Shown here one piece after another: positions 24,484 to 57,705 of a stretch of DNA of 64,000 nucleotides; positions within the stretch are counted from its first letter, which is position 1; every line of letters begins with the position of its first letter. Below the pieces are notes generated by a model that had not been told where the DNA came from, searched no databases, and saw only the letters and a program-made list of their open reading frames with translations. The position numbers and the translations under genes are program-made. This DNA is from Patescibacteria group bacterium. GTDB taxonomy: Bacteria > Patescibacteriota > Minisyncoccia > Phycocordibacterales > JBHPGB01. The DNA lies in contig JBHPGB010000003.1 in assembly GCA_042571085.1 (NCBI GenBank), positions 6,261 through 70,260 on the forward strand, read 5' to 3'.

Positions 24484-25611
24484 CTACTTCTCGTGTTTTA
24501 GTGCGAGGTTAAGGATTTCGCGGGCTATTTTTTCTCCGGCATCTGGGCGGGCAAATTCTTTTGCAGCTTGCTTCATTTCTTCTCTTGTATTTTCGTCGTC
24601 CATAAGTCTATCAATTGATGACATGAGCACATGTGGACTAAGATTTTTTTCTTCCACAACTAAACACGCTCCGCTTCTGGCATAAGTAAATGCGTTGCTG
24701 CGTTGATCGTGACTTATCTCCTCTGGGATTGGAATAATAATACTTGGTAAGCCCCAAGTAGCGATTTCAAATATAGAGGATCCGGCACGCGATATTACAA
24801 CATCAGAAATACCAGCAGACATCTTCATTGCAAGGTCGTTTAGATATTCAAAAGGTTTGTATCTATTTTTGTTTGGTGAGTCTTGCAGTATCACTGAAGC
24901 TGTACCAGAAATTTCTTTAAAGTGTTCTTTTCCTGTTTGGTGTATAACTTGATATTTTTTTACTAGCTCAGGCAATACGCCAAGTATTGCCTCATTTATT
25001 CTTTGTGCACCTTGTGATCCGCCGAGTATTAAGATAACAGGAGTTTGTTTTTCTAATTTCAAAAACTCATGAGCACCACTTGTTTGTGGGATTGAAATAT
25101 TTTTACGTATTGGATTTCCTGTGAGCGCGACACGATCTTCTGGGAAATATTGTGCTGCATCCGGATATGAAACCGCAATTCGTTTTGCAAACTTCCCTGC
25201 CCACTTATTTACTTTTCCGGGCTTTGAATCAGATTCATGTATGATTACTGGAATTCCTAAAAAGCGAGCAGCGAAAAGTGTCGGAAAGCTACCGTAACCC
25301 CCTTTGCCGAATACTACGTCAGGGAAGATTCTATACAATTGCCACGTTGCTTTAATGATTCCTGTTGCTGTTTTAAAAATATCAAAGAAGTTTTTGATTG
25401 AGAAATGTTTACGAACTTTACCAGCTGGAGCTTGTTTGAATTCTATACCGTGCTCAAAAAGCTCTTTTTTATCATATGGATTAGGTGCAACAAAATACAT
25501 TTGTGTTTCCAACAAATGTTCTTTTGATGCCAGTTCATTTATTTCTTCAGCTATTGCGATAATTGGATAAAAGTGTCCACCTGTACCGCCACCTGTAAAT
25601 AGAATTTTCAT
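24484..25611 (-). CDS. murG: UDP-GlcNAc:undecaprenyl-PP-MurNAc-pentapeptide GlcNAc transferase MurG
   Basis: 375 aa; GGTGGH N-terminal motif; GT-B fold; follows ftsW. Confidence 0.9.
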   Translation of the reverse strand: MKILFTGGGTGGHFYPIIAIAEEINELASKEHLLETQMYFVAPNPYDKKELFEHGIEFKQAPAGKVRKHFSIKNFFDIFKTATGIIKATWQLYRIFPDVVFGKGGYGSFPTLFAARFLGIPVIIHESDSKPGKVNKWAGKFAKRIAVSYPDAAQYFPEDRVALTGNPIRKNISIPQTSGAHEFLKLEKQTPVILILGGSQGAQRINEAILGVLPELVKKYQVIHQTGKEHFKEISGTASVILQDSPNKNRYKPFEYLNDLAMKMSAGISDVVISRAGSSIFEIATWGLPSIIIPIPEEISHDQRSNAFTYARSGACLVVEEKNLSPHVLMSSIDRLMDDENTREEMKQAAKEFARPDAGEKIAREILNLALKHEK

Positions 25612-25726
25612 CCCGTTAGAGATAGGAAAGATAATTTCCGTATCTGATTATGTGTTGTTAAAAAATTGACCAAAATCTCGCCATGTTCCATTTTGCCACA
25701 AAAGACAGCTTGGATCTCTAACGGGA
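25611..25726 (-). mobile_element. TIR element copy A (116 bp): 13-bp terminal inverted repeats TCCCGTTAGAGAT; TGAA/TTCA 4-bp direct repeats at 25607..25610 and 25727..25730; abuts the murG start codon
   Basis: Both ends read directly from the sequence. The terminal A of the element plus the duplicated TGAA rebuilds the murG ATG. Confidence 0.55.
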
Positions 25727-25734
25727 TTCATAAA

Positions 25735-26838
25735 TTAAAAGTTTGTTTTATGTCTTGAAATATTTAGTACAATTCCTATCATTGCGAGTGTGATCAGCAT
25801 TGCCGTACCGCCGTGACTAATAAATATTAGCGGTAATCCCGTGAGTGGAAATACCCCCAAAATTGAAGCTATGTTGGTAAATGATTGTACTACGATCATT
25901 ATAACAATCCCGGAAGCAAGAAGTCCACTAAAGCTGTCTGGAGCAGATTTGGCGATATGCAGACCGCGTAAGAGGAATAATAAGAAAAGGACGATTATCA
26001 CACTACTTCCCATGAAGCCGAATTCTTCGCTAGCTACTGCAAATACGGAATCCCCTATTGGCTCAGGTAAGAAATTGAATTTTTGTACTGATTGCCCAAA
26101 CCCTTTTCCAAACATTTCTCCAGATCCTATCGCAATTAGCGACTGCTGTATTTGCCACCCTGCTCCTTGCGGGTCACGGCCAGGGTCAACAAATGTTAAC
26201 ATTCTGTCCATTACATATGGCCTGCTAAATGCGAGTGCCGTAAGCATTAAAATACCAACTAAAATTAAAGAAAAAAGATGCTTCCATTTACCGCCAGCTA
26301 TTAGAAAAATAGCACAAGAGGTTGCAGCAATTACAAGAAATGTCCCGGTGTCTGGTTGTGACAAAAGAAGAAATCCATTAATCATTAACACAACACACAG
26401 TGGCATAAATCCCCACTTAATTGTGTGCACCCTGTTTCGTATTGATGCATACCACGCAGACAAATATAGTATCGTACCAAACTTTAAAAATTCTGCTGGC
26501 TGAAAAGAGAATGGTCCAATAGATATCCAACGCTTTGCTCCACCATGTTCAAATCCAAAAAGAGGAATTAGTGTAAGAACAGTAAGTACGATTGATAATA
26601 CAAAAATATGTAAAGCATATTTTTTCCAGTTCCTATAATATATTTTTGAAAAAAAAGTCATCGCACCGAGCCCCAGCACGATGCCAAAAAAAACTTGATT
26701 AAAAACAATTGCAGAGAAGCCAGCGCCTTCACGTGCGTGTAAGCCAAGAGAGGCTGATATAAATATAAAAAAACCGCTACACAGTAGAACCAGAACGATT
26801 ATGAGAAATGTTTTGTCTATGGGATTATATGTATTCAT
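25735..26838 (-). CDS. ftsW: Peptidoglycan glycosyltransferase FtsW (SEDS family)
   Basis: 367 aa; about 10 TM helices; SEDS signature region; context mraY-ftsW-murG. Confidence 0.85.
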   Translation of the reverse strand: MNTYNPIDKTFLIIVLVLLCSGFFIFISASLGLHAREGAGFSAIVFNQVFFGIVLGLGAMTFFSKIYYRNWKKYALHIFVLSIVLTVLTLIPLFGFEHGGAKRWISIGPFSFQPAEFLKFGTILYLSAWYASIRNRVHTIKWGFMPLCVVLMINGFLLLSQPDTGTFLVIAATSCAIFLIAGGKWKHLFSLILVGILMLTALAFSRPYVMDRMLTFVDPGRDPQGAGWQIQQSLIAIGSGEMFGKGFGQSVQKFNFLPEPIGDSVFAVASEEFGFMGSSVIIVLFLLFLLRGLHIAKSAPDSFSGLLASGIVIMIVVQSFTNIASILGVFPLTGLPLIFISHGGTAMLITLAMIGIVLNISRHKTNF

Positions 26839-28938: not shown

Positions 28939-29490
28939 TTAAGCCACTTCCTCTTCTTCCTCTTTTTGTTCTTCAAAACTCTCTATTTCCACTTTCACAT
29001 TTTCATAATCTGGCAGCTCTGTAATATCTGTTATACCAAGATGAGCGAAAAGTTCAAATGTTGGTTTGTATAGAAAGCTTCTTTGGTCTTCAGGGTTGCT
29101 CGTGCGTTCAACAAGTCCGCGCACCATCAAGTTGCGTAGAATGAAGCCTGAGTTTACACCACGAATGTAGTCTACCCTACTTTTTGCAATTGGTCCGAGA
29201 TATAAAACTATAGCAAGTGTTTCCAGACCTGCTTTACCCAAGTCTTTGTTCAGCTCTTCTTTTACGAGCGCTTCAATAATGTCTCCAAATTCAGGAGCAG
29301 TACCAATCATAACCACATCGTCTTTTTTAATTAATCTTATTCCCCTGTCGCTTAGGCTTTCTTTCAATTCAGAAACAGCATTAAGAGCATCTTCTTCTTG
29401 CACGCTCAACATAGCAGCCAAATTTTTTATTTTTGTTGGCCCGTTTTGGTAAAAAAGTATTGCTTCTATTTTTTTTGATAATTCATTCAT
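28939..29490 (-). CDS. scpB: Segregation and condensation protein B
   Basis: 183 aa; two winged-helix repeats; adjacent to scpA. Confidence 0.85.
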   Translation of the reverse strand: MNELSKKIEAILFYQNGPTKIKNLAAMLSVQEEDALNAVSELKESLSDRGIRLIKKDDVVMIGTAPEFGDIIEALVKEELNKDLGKAGLETLAIVLYLGPIAKSRVDYIRGVNSGFILRNLMVRGLVERTSNPEDQRSFLYKPTFELFAHLGITDITELPDYENVKVEIESFEEQKEEEEEVA

Positions 29491-29659
29491 CCCGTTAGAG
29501 ATAGGAAATAAAATTTCCGTATCTGATTATGTATTGTTAAACATTGATCAAAATCTCATTATATTCCATTTTGCCATAAAAGACAGTTTGGACCTGCCCG
29601 CCACTGCCTAATTCGTCCCAAATGTCAGTCAGGCGATGGCAGGCGGGTATCTAACGGGA
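29490..29659 (-). mobile_element. TIR element copy B (170 bp) carrying a nested 57-nt GC-clamped hairpin module; TTCA direct repeats; abuts the scpB start codon
   Basis: Same ends as copy A; insertion CCTGCCCGCCACTGCC...GGCAGGCGGGTA at about 29596..29652. Confidence 0.55.
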
Positions 29660-29672
29660 TTCATGTTGTTTT

Positions 29673-31455: not shown

Positions 31456-32608
31456 TTATCAGTGTAACAAATAATGTTGCCACTGCAGCAAATATGAAAA
31501 TAAATTTTATGCTAAAGAAAAATGAAATTATAAATGCAATACCAATCATTAATATCCTCCCAATATTTAGTGACATTTCTCGTAATACAGTATATTCGTC
31601 CACATAATGTCCATTATCTGCAGCTTGGTCATATTGTGTTGTATCAACAGATGTGCGATGTATTACTCTACCTACATTGTGGTATGTGTCTGCGATAAAA
31701 ACCTGGAATGCTGTTTCTATGAAAAGTTTAACAATCCATCCTGTGGTGTTAAATATTGATCCAATAACTACCATACGTTTTTGATTCCAGGTATCAAGTA
31801 AATTTCCAATGAAAGTTCGTATTATTATAATTGCAAAAATTGTTAATGAGGATACGATACCTACTGTGAGATATTTTTCATCAAATAGCATGAATATAAA
31901 AATAGGCCATATTATTGCTGATACAATACTTTGAAACCCATCAGCAGTGAATGCTATAAACATACCCCTGTTTTCTTTGTGAAAAAGTTTTTTGAAAGTT
32001 TCCAAGTACCCCCAACTATAATGTTCTCGTGTACTTTCTATAAAAAAAGCTGGAATTATACTGAATAAAAACAAAAAGGCTGAAACAAGGAAAGCTCCAC
32101 TGAAAGTGAAATATGCAATCAGTGCGCCACCGACAAATGGCATTATTGTACCTATTATTTGAGCAATATTACGAAGAAGAGAGATTTGTCGACCACGAAT
32201 GTCTTCGTCGGTAAATTTTGCAAAGTCTACATGATATGGAAGCCAGTATAATAATTTATATATAATAATTGCTAATGTGAATATGACAAGAATAAGATAA
32301 GGGTTATAATCCCAAAAATATAGAGAAAAAATTGATATTAGAGCGAAAGGTACCGCAATTATCATCATTTTTTTTAGGCTAAAGCTGTTTAATATTCTTG
32401 ATGCAATTGGATATAAAAAAAGGACCAAACCAAAATTTATTGCATAGATGATGAGAACTGCTGTGAAAGAATTATCAAATTTTGTAAAAAAGAATATTGG
32501 TAGGAACAATCCAATTACTCCAAACGCAGCCTGTAGTAAAACGCGCCCAGTGTATAGCCAGGCAAGATTTTTTGATATTTTTAAATTTTTGTAATCAAAC
32601 AATTTCAT
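31430..32608 (-). CDS. Polytopic membrane transporter (MFS-like), hypothetical
   Basis: 392 aa; about 12 TM helices. Confidence 0.45.
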   Translation of the reverse strand: MKLFDYKNLKISKNLAWLYTGRVLLQAAFGVIGLFLPIFFFTKFDNSFTAVLIIYAINFGLVLFLYPIASRILNSFSLKKMMIIAVPFALISIFSLYFWDYNPYLILVIFTLAIIIYKLLYWLPYHVDFAKFTDEDIRGRQISLLRNIAQIIGTIMPFVGGALIAYFTFSGAFLVSAFLFLFSIIPAFFIESTREHYSWGYLETFKKLFHKENRGMFIAFTADGFQSIVSAIIWPIFIFMLFDEKYLTVGIVSSLTIFAIIIIRTFIGNLLDTWNQKRMVVIGSIFNTTGWIVKLFIETAFQVFIADTYHNVGRVIHRTSVDTTQYDQAADNGHYVDEYTVLREMSLNIGRILMIGIAFIISFFFSIKFIFIFAAVATLFVTLINEQHDMAH

Positions 32609-32778
32609 CCCGTTAGAGATAGGAAATGTAATTTCCGTATCTTATTAATGGTAAATTGATTATGTATAAATATTTTATCAGTTTCCCGCTTGCCACAAAA
32701 GACAGTTTGGACCTGCCCGCCACTGCCTAATTCGTCCCAAATGTCAGTCAGGCGATGGCAGGCGGGTATCTAACGGGA
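32608..32778 (-). mobile_element. TIR element copy C (171 bp) with the same nested hairpin module as copy B; TTCA direct repeats; abuts the start codon of the transporter gene
   Basis: Nested module 32716..32772 is 100% identical to that in copy B. Confidence 0.55.
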
Positions 32779-32785
32779 TTCATTT

Positions 32786-33058
32786 TTATGCGCAAATAGT
32801 ATTTTTATATCCTGGAAAATAATTTTGTATTTCTTTTAAATTAAACTCACTTAAGATTTGCTCCGCCGCTTCCCTCTCAAGCAGAAACTCAAATGATTTT
32901 TCTATTAATTCTTCCGGTGTTATTTTACCATTTGATAGTTTAGCATAATAATCTTTATCTAGTACGACGGTATGCTTTGTTTTGTCGGAAATCTTTACTT
33001 CAAAAGTGAAATGTTCTTCATTCTCATCAATTTTTTGTATTTGCAGATTGTGAGTCAT
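32786..33058 (-). CDS. Hypothetical protein (90 aa)
   Basis: ORF only. Confidence 0.4.
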   Translation of the reverse strand: MTHNLQIQKIDENEEHFTFEVKISDKTKHTVVLDKDYYAKLSNGKITPEELIEKSFEFLLEREAAEQILSEFNLKEIQNYFPGYKNTICA

Positions 33059-34741: not shown

Positions 34742-35040
34742 ATATAGACGTGAAAAATGCCAGAGCAAGCTCCGACATTCTTCAGTGTAGTCACCTCCCG
34801 GAGGAGATAACTACCCTTTTATTATATTCAATATTGAAATCTGGTCAATACTTTTTGTAGATAATTGTGGATAACTCCCAGTGCCTATTCTTTGTAATCT
34901 GACTATTCCACCAGACGTGAAAAATGCCAGAGCAAGCTCCGACATTCTTCAGTGTAATTATTTTCCCGGAGGAAAACAATTACTCTCCTAATATATCAAT
35001 TTCTGAGATTCGCGCAAGTCCTATTTTCAATAGAGTATAA
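34742..35040 (+). repeat. Family-2 composite repeat, locus 1 (unit1 plus unit2; each unit begins with the invariant 42 nt AGACGTGAAAAATGCCAGAGCAAGCTCCGACATTCTTCAGTG)
   Basis: About 90% identical to 37322..37652; unit2 is also present alone at 39198..39372. Confidence 0.7.
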
Positions 35041-35046
35041 ATATTG

Positions 35047-36717
35047 TTATTTGTCAAATTCAGGTAAAAATAGCCTTGCGATGCGTAACTCTTCAAATGA
35101 GTATTTTTCTTTGAGTGCTTTGTATACTGGTGAGAGTTTTGTGTCTCCAGATTTTAGAAAAGCCTTGTGCATTTCCATGAGCGCTTTTTGTTTTGGTTTA
35201 AATGTACTTAAATCAAGCTTTGGATCTTTCTCTTTTAGTTTTTCAAGATGCCCAAGGATGGTGTTTTCAACCACCCCTCTCTTCTTTGCTAGTTGTTTTA
35301 AATTTAATCCCTTTTCTATCAGAAGTCTTGTCTTTTCATATGTAGAGATTTTCTCTTCAACCTTGTCTACTTTTTTATTCTTATTTTTCTCGATTTCTTT
35401 TTTATTTATAGTACCCCCACATTTAAGCACAAAATCGTTGTGCATTTTTTCCATATCTCCATCAGAAAAACGACCTATTACCTTACTCCACTTTTCAGAT
35501 TCTTTTAGAAGGTGTTCATTGATTTGAGCCACTCTTGGGTGCACTGCGAAAGCCATTTCGTTTATACCAGAAAGAAGAAGACCTCCGAGCGTGCGTAGAC
35601 GCGAGAGAGCCACGTATCCTTGTCCTGGCACGAAAGATTTAGACAAATCAATTTCTGCTGCATCCATACTCAAGCCCTGGCTTTTGTGTATCGTAATTGC
35701 CCACGCAAGCCGCAGTGGCAATTGCTCCACCATGCCTAGCACTTTCCCATCCTCCTCAACAGACCATTCCGAAGGTGAAACATGAATTAGTTCACCGGAA
35801 AAAGTTTTGACTACTGGCATGCCATCTTCAAAACCTTTTACAACACCAAGCGTGCCGTTAACGTATCCTTCCTCAAAATTGTTTTTTATAAACATCACCA
35901 CCGCGTCCTTCTTTAGTTTGAGTGTTTCGGATGTCAAAATACTCTTTTTGAGTGAGCTTATGATAGTGGCCCGCCCTTTTGAAGACATCTCAAATTTATA
36001 CTCTGTGCCTGGTAGCTTATCCAATTCTTTTTGATTTAGCTCGTCTACATCGGCATTGTGAGTATACAGGCGCGTCGGTGTGATGTTTCCTTTTATGCTC
36101 GTCTGCTCAGAAAGAATATTACGCGTTTTGTCGCTCACAGAGCCGCCTCGTATTTCATTCAGGATACTTTCTAAAGTACTGTCACCTTGGCGAAATTGTT
36201 CCTCTAAATAACAGACACGAACATCCATTTCTCTCCACGCCTCTGATGCGATAGCGAATTCTGGCTCAGTGTATCCGCGTACAATTGGCGGCAATTGAAA
36301 GAAGTCACCCGAAAGCACCACCTGCATCCCTCCAAACGGCTCAGGGTTACGTTTCATCGCTTTACACACCCTGTTTACATTATCTAGCAGCTGCGGTGAA
36401 AGCATGGAAACCTCGTCTATTAAAAGTATCTGTGTTTTTTCAAACCTGGTCCACAGGTGCTTCTTTCCCTCCATTGAATCCAAATCCATTTCAGATATGT
36501 GTTCTTTAATACCAATGCCACTCCATGAGTGAATGGTGGTGCCTCCTATATGAGTCGCCGCGATACCCGTTGAGGCTGTCACACCGATACTGACTCCCCT
36601 ATCTTTTAAATATGAAATATACTCATTTAAAACATGAGTTTTACCACTACCGGCGGCCCCTGTCAGATATACGTTTCTACCAGCCTTTAAAATTTTTAAC
36701 GCTTCGGCTTGTTTCAT
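35047..36717 (-). CDS. SF1B DNA helicase (PIF1/RecD-like) with C-terminal HTH-like tail
   Basis: 556 aa; Walker A GAAGSGKTH, Walker B LLIDEVSM, GDFFQLPPI, ITIHKSQGLS. Confidence 0.7.
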   Translation of the reverse strand: MKQAEALKILKAGRNVYLTGAAGSGKTHVLNEYISYLKDRGVSIGVTASTGIAATHIGGTTIHSWSGIGIKEHISEMDLDSMEGKKHLWTRFEKTQILLIDEVSMLSPQLLDNVNRVCKAMKRNPEPFGGMQVVLSGDFFQLPPIVRGYTEPEFAIASEAWREMDVRVCYLEEQFRQGDSTLESILNEIRGGSVSDKTRNILSEQTSIKGNITPTRLYTHNADVDELNQKELDKLPGTEYKFEMSSKGRATIISSLKKSILTSETLKLKKDAVVMFIKNNFEEGYVNGTLGVVKGFEDGMPVVKTFSGELIHVSPSEWSVEEDGKVLGMVEQLPLRLAWAITIHKSQGLSMDAAEIDLSKSFVPGQGYVALSRLRTLGGLLLSGINEMAFAVHPRVAQINEHLLKESEKWSKVIGRFSDGDMEKMHNDFVLKCGGTINKKEIEKNKNKKVDKVEEKISTYEKTRLLIEKGLNLKQLAKKRGVVENTILGHLEKLKEKDPKLDLSTFKPKQKALMEMHKAFLKSGDTKLSPVYKALKEKYSFEELRIARLFLPEFDK

Positions 36718-37321: not shown

Positions 37322-37652
37322 CTATAGACGTGAAAAATGCCAGAGCAAGCTCCGACATTCTTCAGTGCAGCTACCTCCCGGAGGAGATAACTACCTTTCT
37401 ATTATATTTAATATTGAAATCTGGTCAATACTTTTCTGTGCATAACTGTGGATAACTACCAATGCCTATTCTTTGTACCCTGACTATTTCACCAGACGTG
37501 AAAAATGCCAGAGCAAGCTCCGACATTCTTCAGTGTAATTATTTTCCCGGAGGAAAACAATTACTCTCCTAATATATCAATTTCTGAGATTCACGCAAGT
37601 CCTATTTTCAATAGAATATAAATATAAAAATATGTCAAATTTAGACAAAATG
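37322..37652 (+). repeat. Family-2 composite repeat, locus 2 (unit1 plus unit2) between engB and pyk
   Basis: Direct copy of locus 1. Confidence 0.7.
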
Positions 37653-37664
37653 GCAAGTTTTAAT

Positions 37665-39092
37665 TTATACCTCAAGAACGAATACCATATTTGTACTACC
37701 TGGTTCTCCGAATGGAATTCCTGCAGATATAATAATCTTGTCCCCTTTTTTAACGGAACGGTTTCCCAAAGCGATTTTCTTTATATCATCAATAACATCA
37801 AGTACATGTGTAAAATCACCAATTAATTCAGAATAACATCCAAACAAAAGCGCTAATTGGTTTCTTACGTGTGGTTTGGGTGTAAGAGCTATGATTGGTT
37901 GTTTTGGCTTAAATCTCGATATCATTTTTGCAGTAGATCCAGATTCAGTAAGTGCAACAATTGCTTTTGCATCAACGTCTCGTGCGGTCAAAACAACAGC
38001 TCGAGTAACAGCATCAACAGTAGTATAAGGTTTTTCAGTAATACAGTTGATTTCTCTCAAGTTTGATACACTGTCTACTTTTTGTGCTATAGAGGTCATC
38101 ATCCGAATTGCTTCAACAGGATACTTACCAAGAGTTGTTTCTTCTGATAGCATCACAGCGTCTGTGCCATCTAAGATAGCATTAGCAACATCACTTACCT
38201 CAGCTCTTGTTGGTGTCGGTATATCAATCATTGATTCAAGCATTTGTGTTGCAACAATAACAGGCTTACCTATCAAATGACACTTTTTAATGATTCTTTT
38301 TTGAAGCATTGGTACATTTTGCGCTGGAACCTCAATCGCCAAATCCCCTCTTGCTACCATTATCCCATCAGCATGCTCAATGATAGAATCTAGATTATCT
38401 ATCGCTTCCATAGTTTCAATTTTTGCGATGATGTTTACATGCTCACTCTTGTGTTTTTTCAGTAATGATCGTAGTGTTTTGATATCTTTTAGATTACGAA
38501 CAAAAGAAAGGGCTACGAAGTCGACACCTTTACTTAATCCAAATGCGAGATCTTTTTTGTCCTTTGCTGTGACGGCGCTGATTTTTAAGTTTGCACCTGG
38601 TATATTAACTCCTCGACGACCTTTTGTTTCGCCACCAACGACCACCTTACACACGATTTCTTCCTTTGTTGTTTTTTCTATTTTTAGTTTCTTTTTACCA
38701 TCATCAAGAAGAATGAACACTCCTTTCTGTACTTGTGATGGAAGTTCTTTGTAATTGATATGTGCATTGTTTTCATCACCAATGATTTTGCGTGTAGTGA
38801 GTGTAAAAGTAGAACCTTTTTTAAGCACCACTTTTTCTTTGTAGAAATCACCTATGCGAATTTTAGGACCGGCAAGATCTTGCAGTACTGCAATCGGTTT
38901 GTTTAATTCCTTAGATATTTTTCTTGCAGTATTAATGCGCCCATTGTGTTCATTATGATTTCCATGAGAGAAATTAAGACGCACAACGTTCATACCTGCT
39001 TCAGCCATTTTTTTCATCGTATTTTCATTTTCGGAGACTGGTCCAATTGTTGCCACTATTTTTACATTCTTTGATAAAAACTTATTTTTCAT
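37665..39092 (-). CDS. pyk: Pyruvate kinase
   Basis: 475 aa; PK barrel and C-terminal domain; MVARGDLAIE motif. Confidence 0.9.
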   Translation of the reverse strand: MKNKFLSKNVKIVATIGPVSENENTMKKMAEAGMNVVRLNFSHGNHNEHNGRINTARKISKELNKPIAVLQDLAGPKIRIGDFYKEKVVLKKGSTFTLTTRKIIGDENNAHINYKELPSQVQKGVFILLDDGKKKLKIEKTTKEEIVCKVVVGGETKGRRGVNIPGANLKISAVTAKDKKDLAFGLSKGVDFVALSFVRNLKDIKTLRSLLKKHKSEHVNIIAKIETMEAIDNLDSIIEHADGIMVARGDLAIEVPAQNVPMLQKRIIKKCHLIGKPVIVATQMLESMIDIPTPTRAEVSDVANAILDGTDAVMLSEETTLGKYPVEAIRMMTSIAQKVDSVSNLREINCITEKPYTTVDAVTRAVVLTARDVDAKAIVALTESGSTAKMISRFKPKQPIIALTPKPHVRNQLALLFGCYSELIGDFTHVLDVIDDIKKIALGNRSVKKGDKIIISAGIPFGEPGSTNMVFVLEV

Positions 39093-39197
39093 AAACTATT
39101 ATTTGTTTGATTAATATAAAAAAATAAAAAGGCGCCATTGGCGTCATTTTTACTCCCCACTTGTTATTTGACTAACCTGGTGTTCATGTGCAAATCC

Positions 39198-39372
39198 GGG
39201 CGTGAAAAATGCCAGAGCAAGCTCCGACATTCTTCAGTGTAATCATTTAATTATTTCCCGGAGGAAACAGTTAAACAATTACTCCCCTAATATATCAATT
39301 TCTGAGATTTGCGCAAGCCCTATTTTCAATTGAGTATAAATATCAAAATATGTCAAATTGAGGTAAGTTTAG
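39198..39372 (+). repeat. Family-2 repeat, locus 3 (unit2 type only)
   Basis: Invariant 42-nt head plus a conserved tail TATATCAATTTCTGAGATT..GCGCAAG.CCTATTTTCAAT.GAGTATAAATAT. Confidence 0.65.
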
Positions 39373-39437
39373 TATAAAAAAATCGCACCAGTGACCCTTA
39401 CGGGTTTGGTGCGAGTATTCTGCTGAGTGTTTATACC

Positions 39438-40103
39438 TCAGCTTGTGACTTCTTGCATAATCATGTTTACAGCTTTTCTGATTACATCTTGAAGCTGATC
39501 AGATGTGATGTATGGTTCGTAATTATGCGGATAGACATCATTGATCGCTATTTGGCCACTAAACCCATCCAGGGTTATTGAGCTGATAACCCTATCACTA
39601 CTAGTATCCTTTATGTCAACACGAAAACAATCTGTGTCATCTTCTAACTTACTAATATACCCTTCCGCGCAGAACCCTTTATGAGACAATTCCTTCATAA
39701 ATTTTGGATTAAGTACTCGGGAAAGTATTTTAGTTGCAGCTTCGTCTCTGTGTTCATCTCTACGTGAAATCAAGCCCGTGGCACCATGCTCAGGCGCCCT
39801 AACCTTTTCCACACCTAGGAGTATTTCCTTGATGTGTTCAGGGTTCGCTGTGCTAAGGCCTCTCACATGATAAGTACGTCTCTGCGCGTCACCCAGATCA
39901 TTTGTATCTATGGCCATTTCCATGGCATCCTTTTCTTCACAGGGGATACAAATATCCGACACGTAATCCATCAAGGTTTTCAAACGCCGGAGGCTCAGTA
40001 CCCCGTTTTCACTCTTTAGCACAAGTGTCACACTTTGTAGTGGATGCAAACGGCCTATGCGAGATACAGTCCTATCAGTTATATTTTTCATACGTTCTCC
40101 CAA
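39438..40103 (-). CDS. Hypothetical protein (221 aa), GC-atypical (about 50% GC versus about 37% in neighbours)
   Basis: ORF; compositional anomaly counted directly (51 of 99 in a sampled stretch); no recognisable domain. Confidence 0.5.
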   Translation of the reverse strand: MGERMKNITDRTVSRIGRLHPLQSVTLVLKSENGVLSLRRLKTLMDYVSDICIPCEEKDAMEMAIDTNDLGDAQRRTYHVRGLSTANPEHIKEILLGVEKVRAPEHGATGLISRRDEHRDEAATKILSRVLNPKFMKELSHKGFCAEGYISKLEDDTDCFRVDIKDTSSDRVISSITLDGFSGQIAINDVYPHNYEPYITSDQLQDVIRKAVNMIMQEVTS

Positions 40104-40335
40104 TATCCAATGTTGTTTAAATTGTACTTTCCGGTGTCAATAATACTTCATAATGAGCCATTCGTCAAGTGTGTTTATCCATAAAACAGACTGTATTTTT
40201 TCAGCTCATTTTTTGATTCTGTGCAATCAGGCAAAATACATTCTACTAAGGCCCAAAAATTGCGTGAATGATTCATTTCTATCAAATGATACAATTCATG
40301 TACGATTATATAGTCTTGTAATTTTTATAAAAAAA

Positions 40336-40362
40336 CCGGCCATGTGGCCGGCTTTACTAGTT
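40336..40362 (-). terminator. Intrinsic terminator CCGGCC atgt GGCCGG with a T-run on the minus strand, after the 92-aa gene
   Basis: Hairpin plus TTTTTTT on the minus strand. Confidence 0.7.
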
Positions 40363-40381
40363 TATAGGTTGTGAGTGAAAT

Positions 40382-40660
40382 TCAGCTGAGTTCAGGTCTT
40401 GTGACATCCCAAGAGTCGATGTAAAGCTTGTCCTCATGTTGGTCAACCTCAAACGGAACACACTCCACAAGGTCCATGTTGATATCCTGCGAACATTTAA
40501 TAAGGTACTTTGATATCTCATCAGCCTCTTCAGGGGACGCTGCTTTAATACAAACCTGGATTTGGTCTATGTTAGTTGCCCGGGTTATTAGGGCGACCAG
40601 TGAATTTTGGGCTGTGTATAAAATGCTATGATATTGCGCTTTAAGCTCTCTTGCATTCAT
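40382..40660 (-). CDS. Hypothetical protein (92 aa), GC-elevated
   Basis: ORF with its own terminator. Confidence 0.45.
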   Translation of the reverse strand: MNARELKAQYHSILYTAQNSLVALITRATNIDQIQVCIKAASPEEADEISKYLIKCSQDINMDLVECVPFEVDQHEDKLYIDSWDVTRPELS

Positions 40661-40738
40661 CGCATACTCCTGATAGTTAGTTTAATTTAATCAAATTTCC
40701 ACTGTGATTCTACAAAACTAACTAGATATTGTCAATGT

Positions 40739-41725
40739 CTAGTCAAATATATAAAGTAGATATTCATCTAGCTCACGTTGAGAGAGGTCGTGGAAATGCT
40801 TCTCTTGATCATGAAGATCAGTGGCGAGTTTTATACCTACAAAACGCCAGTGCCACGGCTCAAATATGTAGTGTCCGTTTTTTTCTGGATAAGAAAGTGT
40901 AAAGCCAAATTTATGAGCATGCTCTTGCATCCATGTGTACGCTGCTGTATTTTCAAATCCGTCTAATCGCCCACCGAGACCTGTTGTAATAAAGTCGAGA
41001 GTTGTGCCTAATTGGTGTTCGGAATATCCTTGGTCTGCAGAGAATTGGTTTGCTGTGCCGGCACCATATGTAATCGTATAGTTTGATTTTAAGGTCTGCT
41101 GCTCTTCAAACGATCGGTATCCTGAAAGTATGTAGAGAACTACACCATCTCGCCCTGATGCAAGAAGGAGTCCTTGTAGGTATGGCCATACATGGGCATG
41201 CACAGAAACATCTCTCTCTTCGTAATATTTATACAGATTAGGGATAGGAAATACTTGTGGTGGTTCATAATTCTCATTTAAGAAAAATACTTTTGAGTAT
41301 TTTTGCAGAAGCTCTGGATCAAGGGTGGTTAATTTTTCAAGTGTGTCAACGGTGATATTTAACTCACCTATCTCCCTTTCTTTTAGTGCGACATTTTCTT
41401 TTTCTTGCACAAGGTGTGCGGTTGTTATTTTTAAGTTTGTTTGATATTTTGCGAGCTCTTTCTCGGTTTTTTTGAGGGTGATGTTTGTTCTGGTGTATCC
41501 TGCGCTTAAGATATTTTTTTCTTCTACCGTCGCCTGGTGTTCCTCTGAAAGTACGCTGTATTGATATGTCAGATTTCCAACACCAACACCAGTGCCGAGT
41601 AGCGCAACAAGTGTAAACAAATGTAACCAGTTTTTATTTATGAATACTCGCATATTAAACTCCCTCACTTCTTCCATAAGCTGAGCATATGATTTCCAAA
41701 TCTTTTCAAATATAGATTTTCTCAC
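40739..41725 (-). CDS. D-Ala-D-Ala carboxypeptidase VanY-like (peptidase M15B) with N-terminal TM and coiled coil
   Basis: 328 aa; SEHQLGTTLDF (SxHxxGxAxD) and the EPWHWR-type C-terminal motif. Confidence 0.7.
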   Translation of the reverse strand: MRKSIFEKIWKSYAQLMEEVREFNMRVFINKNWLHLFTLVALLGTGVGVGNLTYQYSVLSEEHQATVEEKNILSAGYTRTNITLKKTEKELAKYQTNLKITTAHLVQEKENVALKEREIGELNITVDTLEKLTTLDPELLQKYSKVFFLNENYEPPQVFPIPNLYKYYEERDVSVHAHVWPYLQGLLLASGRDGVVLYILSGYRSFEEQQTLKSNYTITYGAGTANQFSADQGYSEHQLGTTLDFITTGLGGRLDGFENTAAYTWMQEHAHKFGFTLSYPEKNGHYIFEPWHWRFVGIKLATDLHDQEKHFHDLSQRELDEYLLYIFD

Positions 41726-41813
41726 TCGTTTATTATAACAGATAATAAAAAACGGTTAACTTAAATCTCTTGCTCATTGCCAATAAATACCCTATACTAC
41801 ATACAAATTTCAT

Positions 41814-41885
41814 GGCCCTATCGTCTAACGGCTAGGACACAGGATTCTCATTCCTGCAATCGGGGTTCGATTCCCCGTAGGGTCA
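41814..41885 (+). tRNA. tRNA-Glu (anticodon CUC); CCA not encoded
   Basis: Acceptor GGCCCUA/UAGGGUC; D-arm GUCUAACGGCUAGGAC; anticodon loop UUCUCAU; T-arm CGGGG-UUCGAUU-CCCCG. Confidence 0.85.
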
Positions 41886-41892
41886 CCGACAA

Positions 41893-41921
41893 ATCTAAAA
41901 ACCGCCTCCTCGGCGGTTTTT
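41893..41921. terminator. Perfect palindromic terminator AAAAACCGCC tcct CGGCGGTTTTT after the tRNA
   Basis: 8-bp GC stem with A/T runs on both sides. Confidence 0.8.
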
Positions 41922-42019
41922 AGATTTTCAAGTGGTCATGTCAAGTAATTATTTGATATATCAAATCATGTGTTGTACAATCGAAACAGCTTAACAGAAC
42001 CTTGCTAAGGAGGTATATT

Positions 42020-42469
42020 GTGAGCAAATTGCACTTGTGGTTTTGTGGTCTGTTATTAATTATGTTTTTGCCAGCTACAGGAATGGCGGCGAACATGTTT
42101 TGTCTCAAAAATAATCCTGAAGGAGCACCTCCTGTTTTTATTCTAAGAAATTTGCCCTATATTATGTATCCCCCCGCTTTTGAAAATGATTATTATGCGT
42201 GTTCATGGAGTATATATGACTTAAAAGAAAGGATACACTCTGAAATTAAAAGAAAGCAGGAATCAAGGAGTGGTAGGTTTGAAGCGGCTCTTGCATTTGC
42301 TCTTGGAGAAGAGTTTGTTACAAATGGTGCGTTTACATCAGATTCAGACAGGATATTGGCACGGCAATATTTAACACACGCCAAAGTCCTGGCTTTGGAA
42401 TATGAGCCATTGCTGGTTAAAAAAATCGAGAGTGCAATCAGTAGATTGTCTACGTATACAGATAGATGA
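42020..42469 (+). CDS. Hypothetical secreted protein; GTG start with strong SD (AAGGAGG 6 nt upstream)
   Basis: Signal peptide VSKLHLWFCGLLLIMFLPATGMAA; the track ORF starts earlier at 42002, but the SD-GTG spacing favours 42020. Confidence 0.5.
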   Translation: MSKLHLWFCGLLLIMFLPATGMAANMFCLKNNPEGAPPVFILRNLPYIMYPPAFENDYYACSWSIYDLKERIHSEIKRKQESRSGRFEAALAFALGEEFVTNGAFTSDSDRILARQYLTHAKVLALEYEPLLVKKIESAISRLSTYTDR

Positions 42470-42491
42470 TTAAAGAAATTTGCCTCACTAA

Positions 42492-42522
42492 AAAACGGAC
42501 ACTGTTGTGTCCGTTTTTTTTA
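42492..42522. terminator. Bidirectional terminator AACGGACAC tgtt GTGTCCGTT with A/T runs
   Basis: Between convergent genes. Confidence 0.8.
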
Positions 42523-42840
42523 TTTTATTGCCGTGATCTTTACTTTTGCGAATGGTTGTCGGTGACCCAGCTTCTTTGAGTAGTTACTTTTTGATTTGAA
42601 TTTTATGATAGTAACTTTCTTATCTCGCCCTTCTTCTTCAAGGACCGCTTCTACTTTTGCTCCTGAAACGTGCGGTGTGCCGATCTTAGTATCTTTTCCA
42701 TCATCAACAAGAAGTACTTCATTAAAAGTAATTTTGGCTCCTACTTTATGTTCCTCTTTCAATTTCTCGATTTTAAGAGTATCACCTTCGGAAACCTTAT
42801 ATTGTTTTCCGCCTGTTTGTATTACTGCTATCTTTGTCAT
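42520..42840 (-). CDS. rplU: 50S ribosomal protein L21
   Basis: 106 aa; MTKIAVIQTGGKQYKVSEGDTLKIEKL. Confidence 0.9.
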   Translation of the reverse strand: MTKIAVIQTGGKQYKVSEGDTLKIEKLKEEHKVGAKITFNEVLLVDDGKDTKIGTPHVSGAKVEAVLEEEGRDKKVTIIKFKSKSNYSKKLGHRQPFAKVKITAIK

Positions 42841-42850
42841 AATGCGTCAT

Positions 42851-42878
42851 ATATTACACGAATTTTGTGAATAATCAA
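42851..42878 (-). promoter_or_regulatory. rplU promoter TTGATT-16-TAATAT (minus strand)
   Basis: Read on the minus strand, about 14 nt upstream of the ATG. Confidence 0.45.
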
Positions 42879-42904
42879 CCCCTCCACAGTCATTTTAAGT
42901 CACA

Positions 42905-42938
42905 TTAATTGGCTCAACTGTGCTGAGCCAATTAATAT
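42905..42938. repeat. GGCTCA-family palindromic hairpin ATTAATTGGCTCA actgtgc TGAGCCAATTAAT
   Basis: 13-bp perfect stem; shares the ATTAAT flanks with 10838..10870. Confidence 0.55.
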
Positions 42939-42965
42939 GGCTTAAAATATAGATATTTTTGAATT

Positions 42966-43155
42966 AAAAAGCCCCTCTCACATCCTGTGGAGGGGCCGCG
43001 CCGCTTTTATATGAGAGAACACCTTGTCGGGGAGTGAACCTCCCATTTAAGTGGCGATGAGGGTTTGGGTGTGATGGCTGGCACTCAAGATCCCTCGTGT
43101 GTCAGCACGATCTATCGCGATGGGCGGCCGCGGAGAGATCGTGGATTAACAATCC
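42966..43155 (-). ncRNA. Candidate about 190-nt GC-rich structured RNA, running from a TTGAAT-17-TATTAT promoter at 43162..43190 to the terminator hairpin GCCCCTC..GAGGGGC + T5 at 42966..42996
   Basis: About 60% GC island in an AT-rich genome; promoter and terminator both on the minus strand; no credible ORF. Confidence 0.4.
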
Positions 43156-43251
43156 ATTGTATAATATCCATATCCAAGACTGATTCAAGCCTTATCTTAC
43201 CATCCTTGTTTCGGGCGCAGGTGAATCCGTGTACTTTATCTGCATTGAATT

Positions 43252-44406
43252 TTAATCTTTCTCACTTGGTTTGTCAATTGCGATTGGTTCAAATTCTGTA
43301 CTTTCGCCTGTGATTTTAAGCATGTCTTTGTCTATCTTACCCAATTCTTTCTGCGCTTTGTCATAATGATTCACTGTTGTAGAAAGAGATTTGCCCACTT
43401 TCTCGAAATATTCATCATATGCCTTAAGGTGCTTTGTGAGTTGTCCGACTTGCTTCCCTATTTGCTTTGCAGACTCCTCAATTTTAAAGGCTTTGAAACC
43501 ATAAAGTACTGATTGGAGATATGCGGAAAATGTCGTCGGGGAAACAATGATTACATTTTTTTCATTGTATGCGTAATCAATGAGAGAGCGCGTGTTAACT
43601 TTAATCGCCCCAACCTCATTTACAATCAAATCATAATAAATACCTTCTGCAGGAATAAACATGAATGCGAACGGAAGTGTGTTTTCTTTCGGACGAATAT
43701 ATTTTGCGGTTTCATCTATGCGCTTTTTTAGATCATTTCTGAATTCTTTTTCAAGTATTGTTTTTTTGTCTTCGTCTGTTTCATTAATAATTCTATTGTA
43801 ATTATCAAGTGAGAATTTTGCGTCCACTGGGATAATTCCTTCTTTTGTTATTATTACAGCATCGACTTGATCACCCCCTTCAAAAAGATATTGCATTTTG
43901 TATGCATCTGGTGGAAGTATATTTTCAAGTGATAATTTTAAACTAGCTTCACCTAAATTACCGCGTTGTTTTTGGTGTTTTAAAACTTTTTCAAGATTAC
44001 TCAGCTGGTCTGCAATTGTAAAAACCTGCTTGCTACTCTCCCCAACCTCAGCAACTTCCTTTTTGACATTTATTAATTGCTCGGTCACCTGTTTATTAAT
44101 ATCTTGTACTAGCTTTTGTGACTCTGAGAATTGTGATTTTACAGCAGATTGCATTTCTTTTTGCGATTCACCAAGTTTTGAGTCCATACTGCGTGCCAAA
44201 TTTTCCAATTGGTTTTGGAGCAACATGAAGCTTTGGTCGTTCTCGTTTCCTTTAGGTTCTTCTTTTTTATTTAACACTCTCCAAAAAGCGATTCCGCCGA
44301 TAATAACGACTGCGAATAGTACCAATATTAATATCAAAAGTAATTGTTCCATGCGTGAATTATAGCGTGCTTGCGCCTTTTGACCAAATAAATTACCCTG
44401 CTGCAA
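43252..44406 (-). CDS. rmuC: DNA recombination protein RmuC
   Basis: 384 aa; N-terminal TM, coiled coil, C-terminal RmuC domain (FAFMFIPAEGIYYDL). Confidence 0.8.
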   Translation of the reverse strand: MQQGNLFGQKAQARYNSRMEQLLLILILVLFAVVIIGGIAFWRVLNKKEEPKGNENDQSFMLLQNQLENLARSMDSKLGESQKEMQSAVKSQFSESQKLVQDINKQVTEQLINVKKEVAEVGESSKQVFTIADQLSNLEKVLKHQKQRGNLGEASLKLSLENILPPDAYKMQYLFEGGDQVDAVIITKEGIIPVDAKFSLDNYNRIINETDEDKKTILEKEFRNDLKKRIDETAKYIRPKENTLPFAFMFIPAEGIYYDLIVNEVGAIKVNTRSLIDYAYNEKNVIIVSPTTFSAYLQSVLYGFKAFKIEESAKQIGKQVGQLTKHLKAYDEYFEKVGKSLSTTVNHYDKAQKELGKIDKDMLKITGESTEFEPIAIDKPSEKD

Positions 44407-44444
44407 GCAGACGGGGTTTTTCCAAGCACGACAATAAAAATATA

Positions 44445-47120
44445 CTAATTTTTCACTGATTTTCTTTCAAAATAGAAGTATTTCACAATTTCAATAATAA
44501 ACACATTTAGTAGTCCGACCAGTAGAACAAATAGCAGGTCTAAAGCTGAGACCGGTGTTAGTGATAGAAGCTTACGCAATATAGGCACAAACACAGCGAG
44601 TAATAGTGCTGCGAAGCTTGTGATAAGGGCAAATATTAAATATTTATTACTAAATATATTTATCCTCCAAAGGGGTTTGTGTAAATCTTTTAATGATAGT
44701 GAGAAGAATATTGAGTCGACTGAAAGGACCATAAACATAAGCGTGCGAATTTTTTCAATAGGTAGATTTGTATTAAGAAGTATGAAATAGATAGCAGTTA
44801 GAAGTATGCCAGTCACTAGGCTCAAAATTAATATAAGGGAACGGAGTTTTGGGGTGAGGATATTTCTCATTTTTGATGAGGATGGATCGCGCTTCATAAC
44901 ATCAGATTCTGCTGGCTCAAATGCAAATGAAAAATTCATAAACCCTTCCTCAACAATATTTGTCCACAAAATTTGTGCTGGTAGGATCGGTAGTGGAGCA
45001 CCAGCAATTAGCGCACCACCCACTACAAATATCTCACTAAAACTCGTTGATAATAAATATGCAACAATTTTTTTCAGGTTATCAAGTATGCGCCTCCCCT
45101 CTTCAATAGCTTTTACAATTACAGTAAAACTATTATCTAGAAGAATCATATCTGAAGCTTCTTTCGCCACTTCTGTACCAGAACCGAGCGCTACACCAAT
45201 ATCTGCTCTACGAAGCGCTGGCGCATCATTAACACCGTCTCCAGTCATTGCTACTACCTCGTCTGCATCTTTGAGTACTTTTACAATGCGCATTTTTTGA
45301 TCTGGTAATACGCGAGCAAAAATACGTACCTTATTGAGTGCATTGAGTAATTCTGCATTAGTATATTCAGCTATATCCGTTCCCGTGAGTACTTGTCCGC
45401 TTACTGGTGCAATACCGGCTTCCACAGCGATGCGATGTGCTGTATTTTCATTATCTCCCGTAACCATAATAACGCGTGCCCCAGCCTTGCGTGCTTTGCT
45501 AATTGATTTCGCAACATCTGGACGCAATGGATCATGGATTACAATAAATCCACCAAACACAATGTCGGTAAAGAGCGTGGACACATCATCACGCATTTCT
45601 TGAGTAAATTTTTCTAAATCAGTTTCTCTGTATGCAATTGCAATAAGGCGCATTCCTTGGCTTGCTTTTTCACTTAGCGTGTCCCCTAGCTCCTTCTTTG
45701 CTTTTTCTGAAAGTTTTACTTTTTTACCATCTTTATAAACATACGTGGAATGTTCAAGCAATAATTCTGGTGAGCCAGAAAAATACATCCTTTGTTTTTT
45801 ACGACTTTCTATATAATTTAGTGATACAGTGAGACGCTTTGCTGATTCAAAAGGTATTGAATCAAATTCAGGATATTCAGCAACCAAAGTATCTCGATTT
45901 AATCCTGACCCAATTCCAGCAAGTAAAATCGCTCGTTCCACTGGCCTACCACGAACAACCCACTCTGATAGCGCATCATCATACCCTTCCACAAATGCAT
46001 CTGATGTAAGCATGGCCATAGCTAATACATCGCGCTCATCAGAGCCGTGTATGAGCGACTCAGTATCAGTACCCTCTTTTTCTTTTTGGATTGAAGAAAG
46101 TGTTAAGATTGCGGCCACGCGCATTTTTGCTTTTGTGAGTGTGCCTGTTTTATCGGTAAGAATTACAGTAGTGGAGCCGAGTGTTTCCGCAGCCAACAAG
46201 TTGCGCACCAATCCTTTTTTCTTGAGTATTGATTCCATTCCAAGCGCCAGGACTACTGTTACTGCCGCAGGCAAACCTTCTGGCATTGCGGCAACAGCAA
46301 TCGCGATTGCAACAAGTAACATATCGTGCGCGGACTGTCCCTGTATCAAACCAATCACAAGGATAAACACAAGAGCAAAAAGAATTACAATGGTAAGATA
46401 TGCCGCTAATTTACGGATACTTTTTTGTAGAGGCGTAATATCTTCTTTGCTACTCAATTCTTTTGCAATTAGTCCAACTTTAGTATCGTCGCCTGTCGCG
46501 ACTACAACAGCTCGCACAAAACCACCAGTTGCGATTGTACCCATCCAGATCATATTTGACTGGTCTGTCATTGGTGCTTTTTTATCGATCTCTCCTGGTT
46601 CTTTGGAAATCTCAGCCCATTCACCTGTTAGGGCAGATTCATTCACAGCAAAGCTGGAAGAGGTAATTACTCGTGCATCAGCTGGTACGAATGAACCAGC
46701 TTCTACAATAACGATATCTCCAACAACTAGGTTCTCAGATAAAATTAGTGTTTTTTTACCGTCTCTCAATACCGTTGTATATTTTTGTTGAGATTTCTTG
46801 AGTTTTTCAAATGCGCTGTCTGCCCTTTTTTCTTGCACGACACCAATTACCATATTAATTAAAAGTGCTATAGCAATAACGATCGCATCAAGATATTCAT
46901 GTAAAAATAGCGTAGCCAAACCTGTCAGAACAAGCACAAAAACCAGAGGGCTTTTGATTTGTGTGAAAAAAATATCGAGGAAAACTTTTCTATCTTCCTC
47001 GGTAAAAATATTTGGCCCTTGTATAGCAAGCCTGCTCCTAGCTTCTTCTTGTGATAAGCCACTTTGCAGATCTGTTTTGAGCTTTTGTTTTATTTCTGTA
47101 AGAGGTGTTGAGTGCCACAT
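44445..47120 (-). CDS. Cation-transporting P-type ATPase (P2-type, Ca2+/Mg2+-ATPase-like)
   Basis: 891 aa; TGES-region, DKTGTLT, MVTGDN, GDGVNDAPAL; 10 TM. Confidence 0.9.
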   Translation of the reverse strand: MWHSTPLTEIKQKLKTDLQSGLSQEEARSRLAIQGPNIFTEEDRKVFLDIFFTQIKSPLVFVLVLTGLATLFLHEYLDAIVIAIALLINMVIGVVQEKRADSAFEKLKKSQQKYTTVLRDGKKTLILSENLVVGDIVIVEAGSFVPADARVITSSSFAVNESALTGEWAEISKEPGEIDKKAPMTDQSNMIWMGTIATGGFVRAVVVATGDDTKVGLIAKELSSKEDITPLQKSIRKLAAYLTIVILFALVFILVIGLIQGQSAHDMLLVAIAIAVAAMPEGLPAAVTVVLALGMESILKKKGLVRNLLAAETLGSTTVILTDKTGTLTKAKMRVAAILTLSSIQKEKEGTDTESLIHGSDERDVLAMAMLTSDAFVEGYDDALSEWVVRGRPVERAILLAGIGSGLNRDTLVAEYPEFDSIPFESAKRLTVSLNYIESRKKQRMYFSGSPELLLEHSTYVYKDGKKVKLSEKAKKELGDTLSEKASQGMRLIAIAYRETDLEKFTQEMRDDVSTLFTDIVFGGFIVIHDPLRPDVAKSISKARKAGARVIMVTGDNENTAHRIAVEAGIAPVSGQVLTGTDIAEYTNAELLNALNKVRIFARVLPDQKMRIVKVLKDADEVVAMTGDGVNDAPALRRADIGVALGSGTEVAKEASDMILLDNSFTVIVKAIEEGRRILDNLKKIVAYLLSTSFSEIFVVGGALIAGAPLPILPAQILWTNIVEEGFMNFSFAFEPAESDVMKRDPSSSKMRNILTPKLRSLILILSLVTGILLTAIYFILLNTNLPIEKIRTLMFMVLSVDSIFFSLSLKDLHKPLWRINIFSNKYLIFALITSFAALLLAVFVPILRKLLSLTPVSALDLLFVLLVGLLNVFIIEIVKYFYFERKSVKN

Positions 47121-57564: not shown

Positions 57565-57680
57565 CCCGTTAGAGATAGGAAATAAAATTTCCGTATCTGA
57601 CTAATTATTAATTCTTTATGTATGGATATTTTACTTAATTCCCGTAGTGTCATAAAAAACAGTCTGGATCTTTAACGGGA
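57564..57680 (-). mobile_element. TIR element copy D (117 bp); TIRs TCCCGTTAGAGAT / ATCTTTAACGGGA; TTCA direct repeats; abuts the leuS start codon
   Basis: Read directly from the sequence. Confidence 0.55.
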
Positions 57681-57705
57681 TTCATTTGTTTAAATAATAC
57701 CACGC

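Follow-up and report, generated by a model that had tools for sequence, protein, structure and literature searches.

The 64-kb stretch of contig JBHPGB010000003.1 analysed here (assembly GCA_042571085.1, Patescibacteria group bacterium; hereafter the window) carries, at positions 39438-40660, two neighbouring minus-strand genes that encode proteins of 217 and 92 amino acids (aa). We read this segment as two real, mutually unrelated and independently transcribed accessory genes at a spot that varies between close relatives, the larger gene belonging to a protein family that would have spread horizontally and may have a binding-type role. Taken with all its parts, this account has in our judgement about an even chance of being right; that both genes are accessory is probable. 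The sequence evidence covers the reality of the genes, their separate transcription, the existence and distribution of the family, the bias in composition and the absence of pairing, and the pattern of distribution and composition suggests a horizontal origin for the 217-aa gene. An initial annotation of the segment had described two orphan open reading frames (ORFs) of atypical guanine plus cytosine (GC) content that might form a small acquired islet. Both ORFs are present where it placed them:

39438-40091, minus strand: 217-aa gene of an undescribed family that is so far seen in Patescibacteria alone
40382-40660, minus strand: 92-aa ORF, with a small acidic product (isoelectric point 4.5) and AGGAG ahead of its ATG

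A family of proteins of about 210 amino acids

An exhaustive phmmer search with the 217-aa protein against 1.84 billion representative sequences recovered 46 relatives (clusters at 50% identity) that align end to end and are nearly all 209-220 aa in length, the best being P0002 (E = 1.3e-32, residues 6-215). With 46 full-length relatives the larger gene loses the label of orphan that it had been given. A word-indexed homolog search with the same query returned the query alone, which, given the phmmer relatives, marks that search as insensitive; when it was started from an alignment of 44 family members, it found four proteins, namely the query, P0021 and P0040 (both known from phmmer), and the new P0047.

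The family alignment contains loose motifs (RLHxxQ, WG..NRT, DVE..DHGAKG and D-G-W/F-S-G-R) and no motif set that looks catalytic. Only D175 and G179 are invariant, with F25 and W66 nearly so; the copy in the window keeps D175 and G179 and has leucine in place of both F25 and W66. It shares with the family both full-length similarity and the conserved D-G-[WF]-S-G motif, the two features by which we recognise members. None of the 44 aligned members matches a model in Pfam, PHROGs or PADLOC, and the 217-aa protein of the window has no match in NCBIfam. The family is thus in no domain database that we consulted. The earlier remark that neither product of the segment has a recognisable motif agrees with our searches, in which the 92-aa product likewise matched nothing in Pfam, NCBIfam, PHROGs or PADLOC.

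Given the 44-sequence alignment, AlphaFold2 predicts a two-part alpha+beta protein with a predicted local distance difference test score (pLDDT) of 97.0 and a predicted template modelling score (pTM) of 0.90; the single-sequence model of the 217-aa protein is unusable (pLDDT 48). Foldseek searches with the predicted structure gave nothing at E <= 0.001, the best values being 0.1 against solved structures and 0.015 against viral models, and the profile of the 44 members matched none of the PDB sequences at E <= 10. Comparison of the N- and C-terminal halves with hhalign gave no sign of an internal duplication (probability 0.3%). One protein, P0043 (276 aa), joins an N-terminal region that by eye resembles YjeF_N to the C-terminal half of the family only; it is a genuine fusion of domains or the product of a chimeric gene call.

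Distribution, composition and variability

Every family record with a readable context or title comes from Patescibacteria, the named hosts being Saccharibacteria, Taylorbacteria, Parcubacteria and unclassified Patescibacteria. We examined about 13 independent genomic contexts (lineages), fetching roughly 300 kb around family members, and found no neighbour conserved across them. The family gene usually stands alone, often in opposite orientation, among housekeeping genes (gyrA, mreB/murA, rplJ/rplL for L10/L7-L12, tsf/rpsB for EF-Ts/S2, trxB/ftsZ), and no relative of the M15 peptidase, the 155-aa ORF or the 92-aa product of the window lies near any member, even at E <= 1.

The family gene tends to be richer in GC than its surroundings. 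Its GC content exceeds the local gene mean in 10 of the 11 loci with comparator genes, in five of which it is the GC-richest gene, and exceeds whole-locus GC in all three short loci; GC at synonymous third codon positions (GC3) lies above the expectation from host codons in nine of the 11 loci (z from 1.7 to 11.1). It is also found near genes for stable RNAs: the 59 kb that lie no more than 2.5 kb from a family gene contain nine of these (one per 6.5 kb), the other 144 kb two. This enrichment involves seven of 13 lineages (Poisson P = 0.003, taking one per 20 kb as generic background; per-lineage binomial P = 0.02). The stable-RNA genes concerned, with their distances from the family gene, are as follows:

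tRNA-Thr, 125 bp (locus L003)
tRNA-Val, 156 bp (L012, L014, L026)
tmRNA, 171 bp (L001)
tRNA-Ala, 593 bp (L011)
tRNA-Trp and tRNA-Tyr, about 1.1 kb (L015)
tRNA-Glu, 1.7 kb (the window)
23S rRNA, 5' end, 2.4 kb (L017)

No Rfam elements other than tRNA, tmRNA and 23S rRNA were found beside family genes. In three of these loci, copies of a tRNA 3' end lie near the gene. In L012 (784-886) the tRNA-Val 3' end recurs inverted over 35 nucleotides (nt) at 94% and encloses a terminator hairpin, a degenerate counterpart of 22 nt and 86% is present in L026 (328-419), and L011 (7035-7494) contains one inverted and two or three tandem direct copies of the tRNA-Ala 3' end. Such fragments may be scars of past integration. 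In L001 the stretch downstream of the gene contains what looks like an inverted tmRNA 3' end, but this was no better than matches in shuffled sequence and was dropped. Separately, tRNA-Ser in L012 (16-300) is followed, about 180 nt further downstream, by a direct copy of its own 3' end that matches at 18 of 18 positions.

In the Saccharibacteria the order tRNA-Ser, tRNA-Val, family gene, trxB is conserved. At this syntenic site the two family copies (L012, 968-1618; L026, 598-1230) are 39% identical, compared with 81% for the adjacent thioredoxin-reductase-like trxB, and the family therefore evolves fast. A different setting is found in L007/L015, where the family gene (8001-8636 in L007) stands between tRNA-Trp and tRNA-Tyr in the company of two small unknown genes, a 310-aa protein with a T4SS_pilin domain and, 6.6 kb away, a large ParB-like gene; this is the sole family context with neighbours that resemble those of mobile elements.

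Within the window, whole-gene GC is 42.8% for the 217-aa gene and 43.4% for the 92-aa ORF, against 37.8% for the window as a whole. The 64 ORFs of the window average 37.9% (standard deviation 2.9), which places the two genes at z of about 1.7-1.9, and values of 50-54% are confined to stretches of 100-200 nt inside the 217-aa gene. The excess first reported for the pair (43-51% compared with about 37%) is thus real but overstated, the higher figures holding only locally. To obtain expected GC3, each protein was recoded with the window's own codon usage, the background being these 64 kb of the genome and their 64 ORFs. By this measure the 217-aa gene has a GC3 of 0.394 against an expected 0.307 ± 0.030 (z = 2.7, rank 6 of 64), and the 92-aa ORF one of 0.451 against 0.299 ± 0.046 (z about 3.3-3.4, rank 3 of 64). 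The two genes belong to the upper tail of the window's ORFs, and do not form an outlier class of their own. No ORF of the window exceeds its expected synonymous GC3 more strongly than that at 35047-36717 (minus strand; z = 4.1), which encodes a PIF1-like helicase with an HTH_40 domain at its C terminus; the helicase and engB are bracketed by repeat units (described below), and the helicase may be another acquired gene.

A single informative relative, the Joint Genome Institute (JGI) contig L023, could be compared with the window, and at the left border only. Through engB, pyk and the repeat its DNA is 90.6% identical to the window; the similarity ends at window position 39392, a breakpoint that coincides with the terminator and 3' end of the 217-aa gene. 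The last 69 nt of L023, in which both the terminator stem and the gene end differ, have no match anywhere in the 64-kb window. This fits a segment whose content differs here between close relatives.

From the non-syntenic, GC-foreign and stable-RNA-proximal distribution of the family we infer repeated horizontal transfer. The 217-aa family gene would have entered, more than once, hot spots beside stable-RNA genes, and in the Saccharibacteria it appears then to have been inherited vertically while evolving fast; the 92-aa gene would probably represent a separate, lineage-specific acquisition. The proposal of an acquired islet keeps, in part and mostly indirectly, the backing of GC-richer synonymous codons, the divergence of L023 and the behaviour of the family elsewhere, but loses the integration at tRNA-Glu that had been suggested for it (see below).

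Several observations weigh against this account of acquisition. Amino-acid content explains about half of the GC excess of both genes and GC-richer synonymous codons the other half, and the compositional signal in the window is modest. Codon usage sets both genes apart by rank (6 and 3), but eight of the 64 ORFs, among them the PIF1-type helicase, reach a synonymous GC3 z of at least 2. Among the ORFs between 31.4 and 49.3 kb there is no integrase or transposase (by Pfam, with which NCBI product names agree), looking for terminal inverted repeats beside the two genes brought up only the terminators and chance matches, and there is no att-like repeat in the window. Pattern scans of viral contigs and tblastn against phage and plasmid records found no family member, so no transfer vehicle is known. 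In the Saccharibacteria, where it is syntenic and host-like in composition, the family gene can be an ordinary resident gene. Finally, the departure of L023 from the window, as the only relative compared, is seen over just the last 45-69 nt or so before that contig ends.

The main rival explanation is accordingly that nothing was acquired: both genes would be ordinary and specific to the lineage, passed on vertically, with a GC content in the upper tail of native genes. Whole-gene GC only about 1.8 standard deviations above the mean suits this explanation, as do the eight ORFs with comparable synonymous bias, the lack of mobility genes and att repeats, and a family gene that is syntenic across deep divergence in the Saccharibacteria. 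It does not account as readily for two adjacent genes ranking third and sixth of 64 in codon bias, for a GC excess of the family that recurs in nine of 11 unrelated hosts, for the non-homologous positions of the family across lineages, or for a 91%-identical relative with different sequence at the spot. We consider it rather unlikely, though the most serious of the alternatives.

Transcription units, flanking sequences and tRNA-Glu

The two genes have their own signals for transcription, as follows:

40140-40168, minus strand: promoter of the 217-aa gene, sigma-70-like, TTGACG-17-TATTAT, 10 of 12 consensus positions
about 39376-39414, minus strand: intrinsic terminator of the 217-aa gene, CGCACCA...UGGUGCG hairpin and a U7 tract, -22.6 kcal/mol, z = -5.1
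40707-40735, minus strand: promoter of the 92-aa ORF, sigma-70-like, TTGACA-17-TAGAAT, 11 of 12 consensus positions
about 40329-40355, minus strand: intrinsic terminator of the 92-aa ORF, GC-rich stem of 10 bp ahead of a U7 tract, -17.5 kcal/mol, z = -5.0

The mechanical ORF of the larger gene, 221 aa, starts at TTG 40103. Its likely start is the ATG at 40091, behind GGGAGAA in a 5' untranslated region without structure; NCBI uses the same start, and its MFC1720894.1 ('hypothetical protein ACFL0K_01425 [Patescibacteria group bacterium]') is identical to the 217-aa product. The promoter of the 92-aa ORF is the highest-scoring promoter-like site in a 6-kb scan, and the terminator of this ORF lies about 25 nt past the stop codon, between the two genes, which are spaced about 290 nt apart. 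For both terminators, none of 200 shuffles folded equally well. That each gene has a terminator of its own had been proposed before, and both hairpins with their U7 tracts are confirmed by the folding z-scores. Since each gene has its own promoter-like site, Shine-Dalgarno sequence and terminator, the two are separate transcription units and form no operon. Both products are soluble and have no hydrophobic segment, and the 217-aa product has neither a signal peptide nor a membrane segment.

No relative of the 92-aa product was found by word-indexed search, by pattern scans of viral contigs or by tblastn against phage and plasmid records, these being only the less sensitive searches; the orphan status of this gene is provisional, because the word-indexed search had missed all relatives of the 217-aa protein. 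The lack of homologs, together with the absence of the exact product from a collection of 15 billion proteins, could also mean that the ORF is no gene at all, arising by chance or as part of an untranslated or RNA-coding region. We find this improbable, given the insensitivity of the search, the top promoter-like site in 6 kb, a well-spaced AGGAG, the strong terminator just past the stop codon, and GC at the three codon positions that follows the order GC1>GC3>GC2 as in other genes. A gap in the NCBI accession numbering (MFC1720895) moreover implies a gene called by NCBI at this ORF. Judged by its signals, the 92-aa ORF looks like a real gene.

The flanking repeat, the VanY-like M15 gene and the tRNA-Glu that the initial annotation named as neighbours of the segment are all present:

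39196-39366, minus strand: intergenic repeat unit (repeat families D3/D4), the conserved left flank of the variable segment
40739-41725, minus strand: M15/VanY-type peptidase (PF02557, E = 1.6e-31; LdcB/VanY models)
41814-41887, plus strand: tRNA-Glu(CUC) (ARAGORN; Rfam, 59.5 bits)

One might take the block from the 217-aa gene to tRNA-Glu, M15 peptidase included, as an island integrated at this tRNA, which is the only one in the 64-kb window and lies 1.7 kb from a gene whose family is enriched near stable-RNA genes elsewhere. The arrangement argues otherwise, and we hold such an island to be highly improbable. The two genes lie on the 5' side of the tRNA, whose 3' end faces away from them, and the M15 gene in between is normal in composition (GC 39.3%, GC3 z = 0.9) and not part of the atypical segment. 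tRNA-Glu has no second copy within three mismatches in 64 kb, and among direct or inverted fragments in 38000-45000 the best 18- to 20-mer matches are no better than those in shuffles, so that the direct repeat of the tRNA 3' end by which integration was to be recognised is not there beyond chance; nor is there an integrase. A 13-nt match between the tRNA 3' end and rplU was rejected as chance, as it falls on the conserved GHRQ codons of L21.

Compared with integrase-mediated islands linked to tRNA or tmRNA genes, the segment seems alike in its modestly atypical composition and in gene content that appears to differ between close relatives, and the family as a whole is alike in its tRNA/tmRNA enrichment and in the copies of tRNA 3' ends in three loci. 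It is unlike them in that the window has neither integrase nor att repeat and its genes stand on the wrong side of the tRNA, in that the 'islands' are here single genes of about 0.65 kb, and in that L012 and L026 carry the tRNA fragment in inverted orientation, L011 in both inverted and direct orientation.

The least probable of the alternatives, to which we give hardly any credence, is that the genes work as a unit, as a toxin/antitoxin or effector/immunity pair such as the initial annotation had considered: they are small, adjacent, on the same strand and similar in their atypical composition, and the 92-aa product is small and acidic like many antitoxins and immunity proteins, but a strong terminator, a separate promoter and some 290 nt stand between them, neither product matches a toxin, antitoxin or defence model (Pfam, NCBIfam, PADLOC, PHROGs) or has a secretion signal or toxin domain, and no 92-aa homolog turns up, even at E <= 1, in the surroundings of family members that were fetched (roughly 300 kb). 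The likeness to type II toxin-antitoxin and polymorphic-toxin pairs is thus that of two small same-strand neighbours in a variable spot, one with an acidic product; unlike such pairs, the genes are separate units without a match to a known family, and their pairing recurs in no other genome examined.

Other features of the flanks are recorded here in their own right. Directly past the 3' end of tRNA-Glu is an ORF at 42002-42469 (plus strand; called by NCBI as 135 aa, MFC1720897.1) with an N-terminal hydrophobic segment, host-like composition and no Pfam match. It occupies the position expected of a tRNA-integrated gene; no att repeat flanks it. The repeat unit to the left of the segment is one of five copies of an intergenic unit of about 167 nt (34743-35069, 37323-37650 and 39196-39366, minus strand), also present at matching places in the 91%-identical relative L023. 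Each copy has a sigma-70-like promoter (e.g. TTGACC-16-TATAAT, 37428-37401) followed by about 90 nt of a conserved two-hairpin RNA. Hairpin 2 is invariant, its three G-U pairs fixing the strand, and hairpin 1 varies between two unit types with compensatory changes at four pairs. The flanking repeats have no match in Rfam. The unit is a candidate small RNA, present in several copies, or a candidate leader. Another family of intergenic repeats (D5-D7 and D10; 25589-25740, 29486-29667, 32586-32786 and 57542-57694) has inverted-repeat termini of about 16 nt (TTCATCCCGTTAGAGA / TCTCTAACGGGAT.CA) about 110 nt apart; it may represent either a miniature inverted-repeat element or some structured RNA.

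Possible role and significance of the family

Because the 217-aa family has almost no conserved polar residues, is soluble and diverges quickly, we suggest, speculatively and with low confidence, that its members would bind another macromolecule, as proteins of the inhibitor, immunity or anti-defence type do, more probably than act as enzymes. In this they may be set beside PsiB (3nct), DarA of phage P1 (9vz0), Gp1.2 of T7 (7u65) and AcrIIA11 (9utm), which are likewise stand-alone, fast-evolving and non-enzymatic. The family differs from all four in giving no Foldseek match at E <= 0.001, and the PDB profile search at E <= 10 retrieves none of them; for PsiB in particular, the 44-member profile does not retrieve 3nct at that threshold and no member has a Pfam match. 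The likeness to PsiB-type inhibitors is one of architecture in one domain, and is a lead only, with no evidence of homology or shared function.

The family also recalls the lineage-restricted hypothetical protein families of bacteria of the candidate phyla radiation (CPR), in that it occurs in patescibacterial contexts only and has no Pfam model and no known function. It departs from them in being rare (46 clusters), non-syntenic and compositionally foreign in most of its hosts, and is not part of a CPR core. A bolder reading, which we regard as a long shot, would make the family an unrecognised, minimal mobile cargo of CPR bacteria: a single gene without an integrase that settles beside tRNA, tmRNA and rRNA genes, leaves direct or inverted fragments of tRNA 3' ends, and encodes a new alpha+beta fold with a part in genetic conflict, such as blocking a protein of a phage, of the host or of a defence system.

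By itself, a small group of accessory genes in an uncultured bacterium is nothing unusual. Of modest interest is a family that is absent from domain databases, has a confidently predicted structure without a clear structural relative, and diverges about as fast as genes involved in conflict. Since the genomes of CPR bacteria are tiny and few mobile elements have been recognised in them, the apparently recurrent insertion of a single gene could shed light on gene exchange among these bacteria and on the objects of their conflicts.

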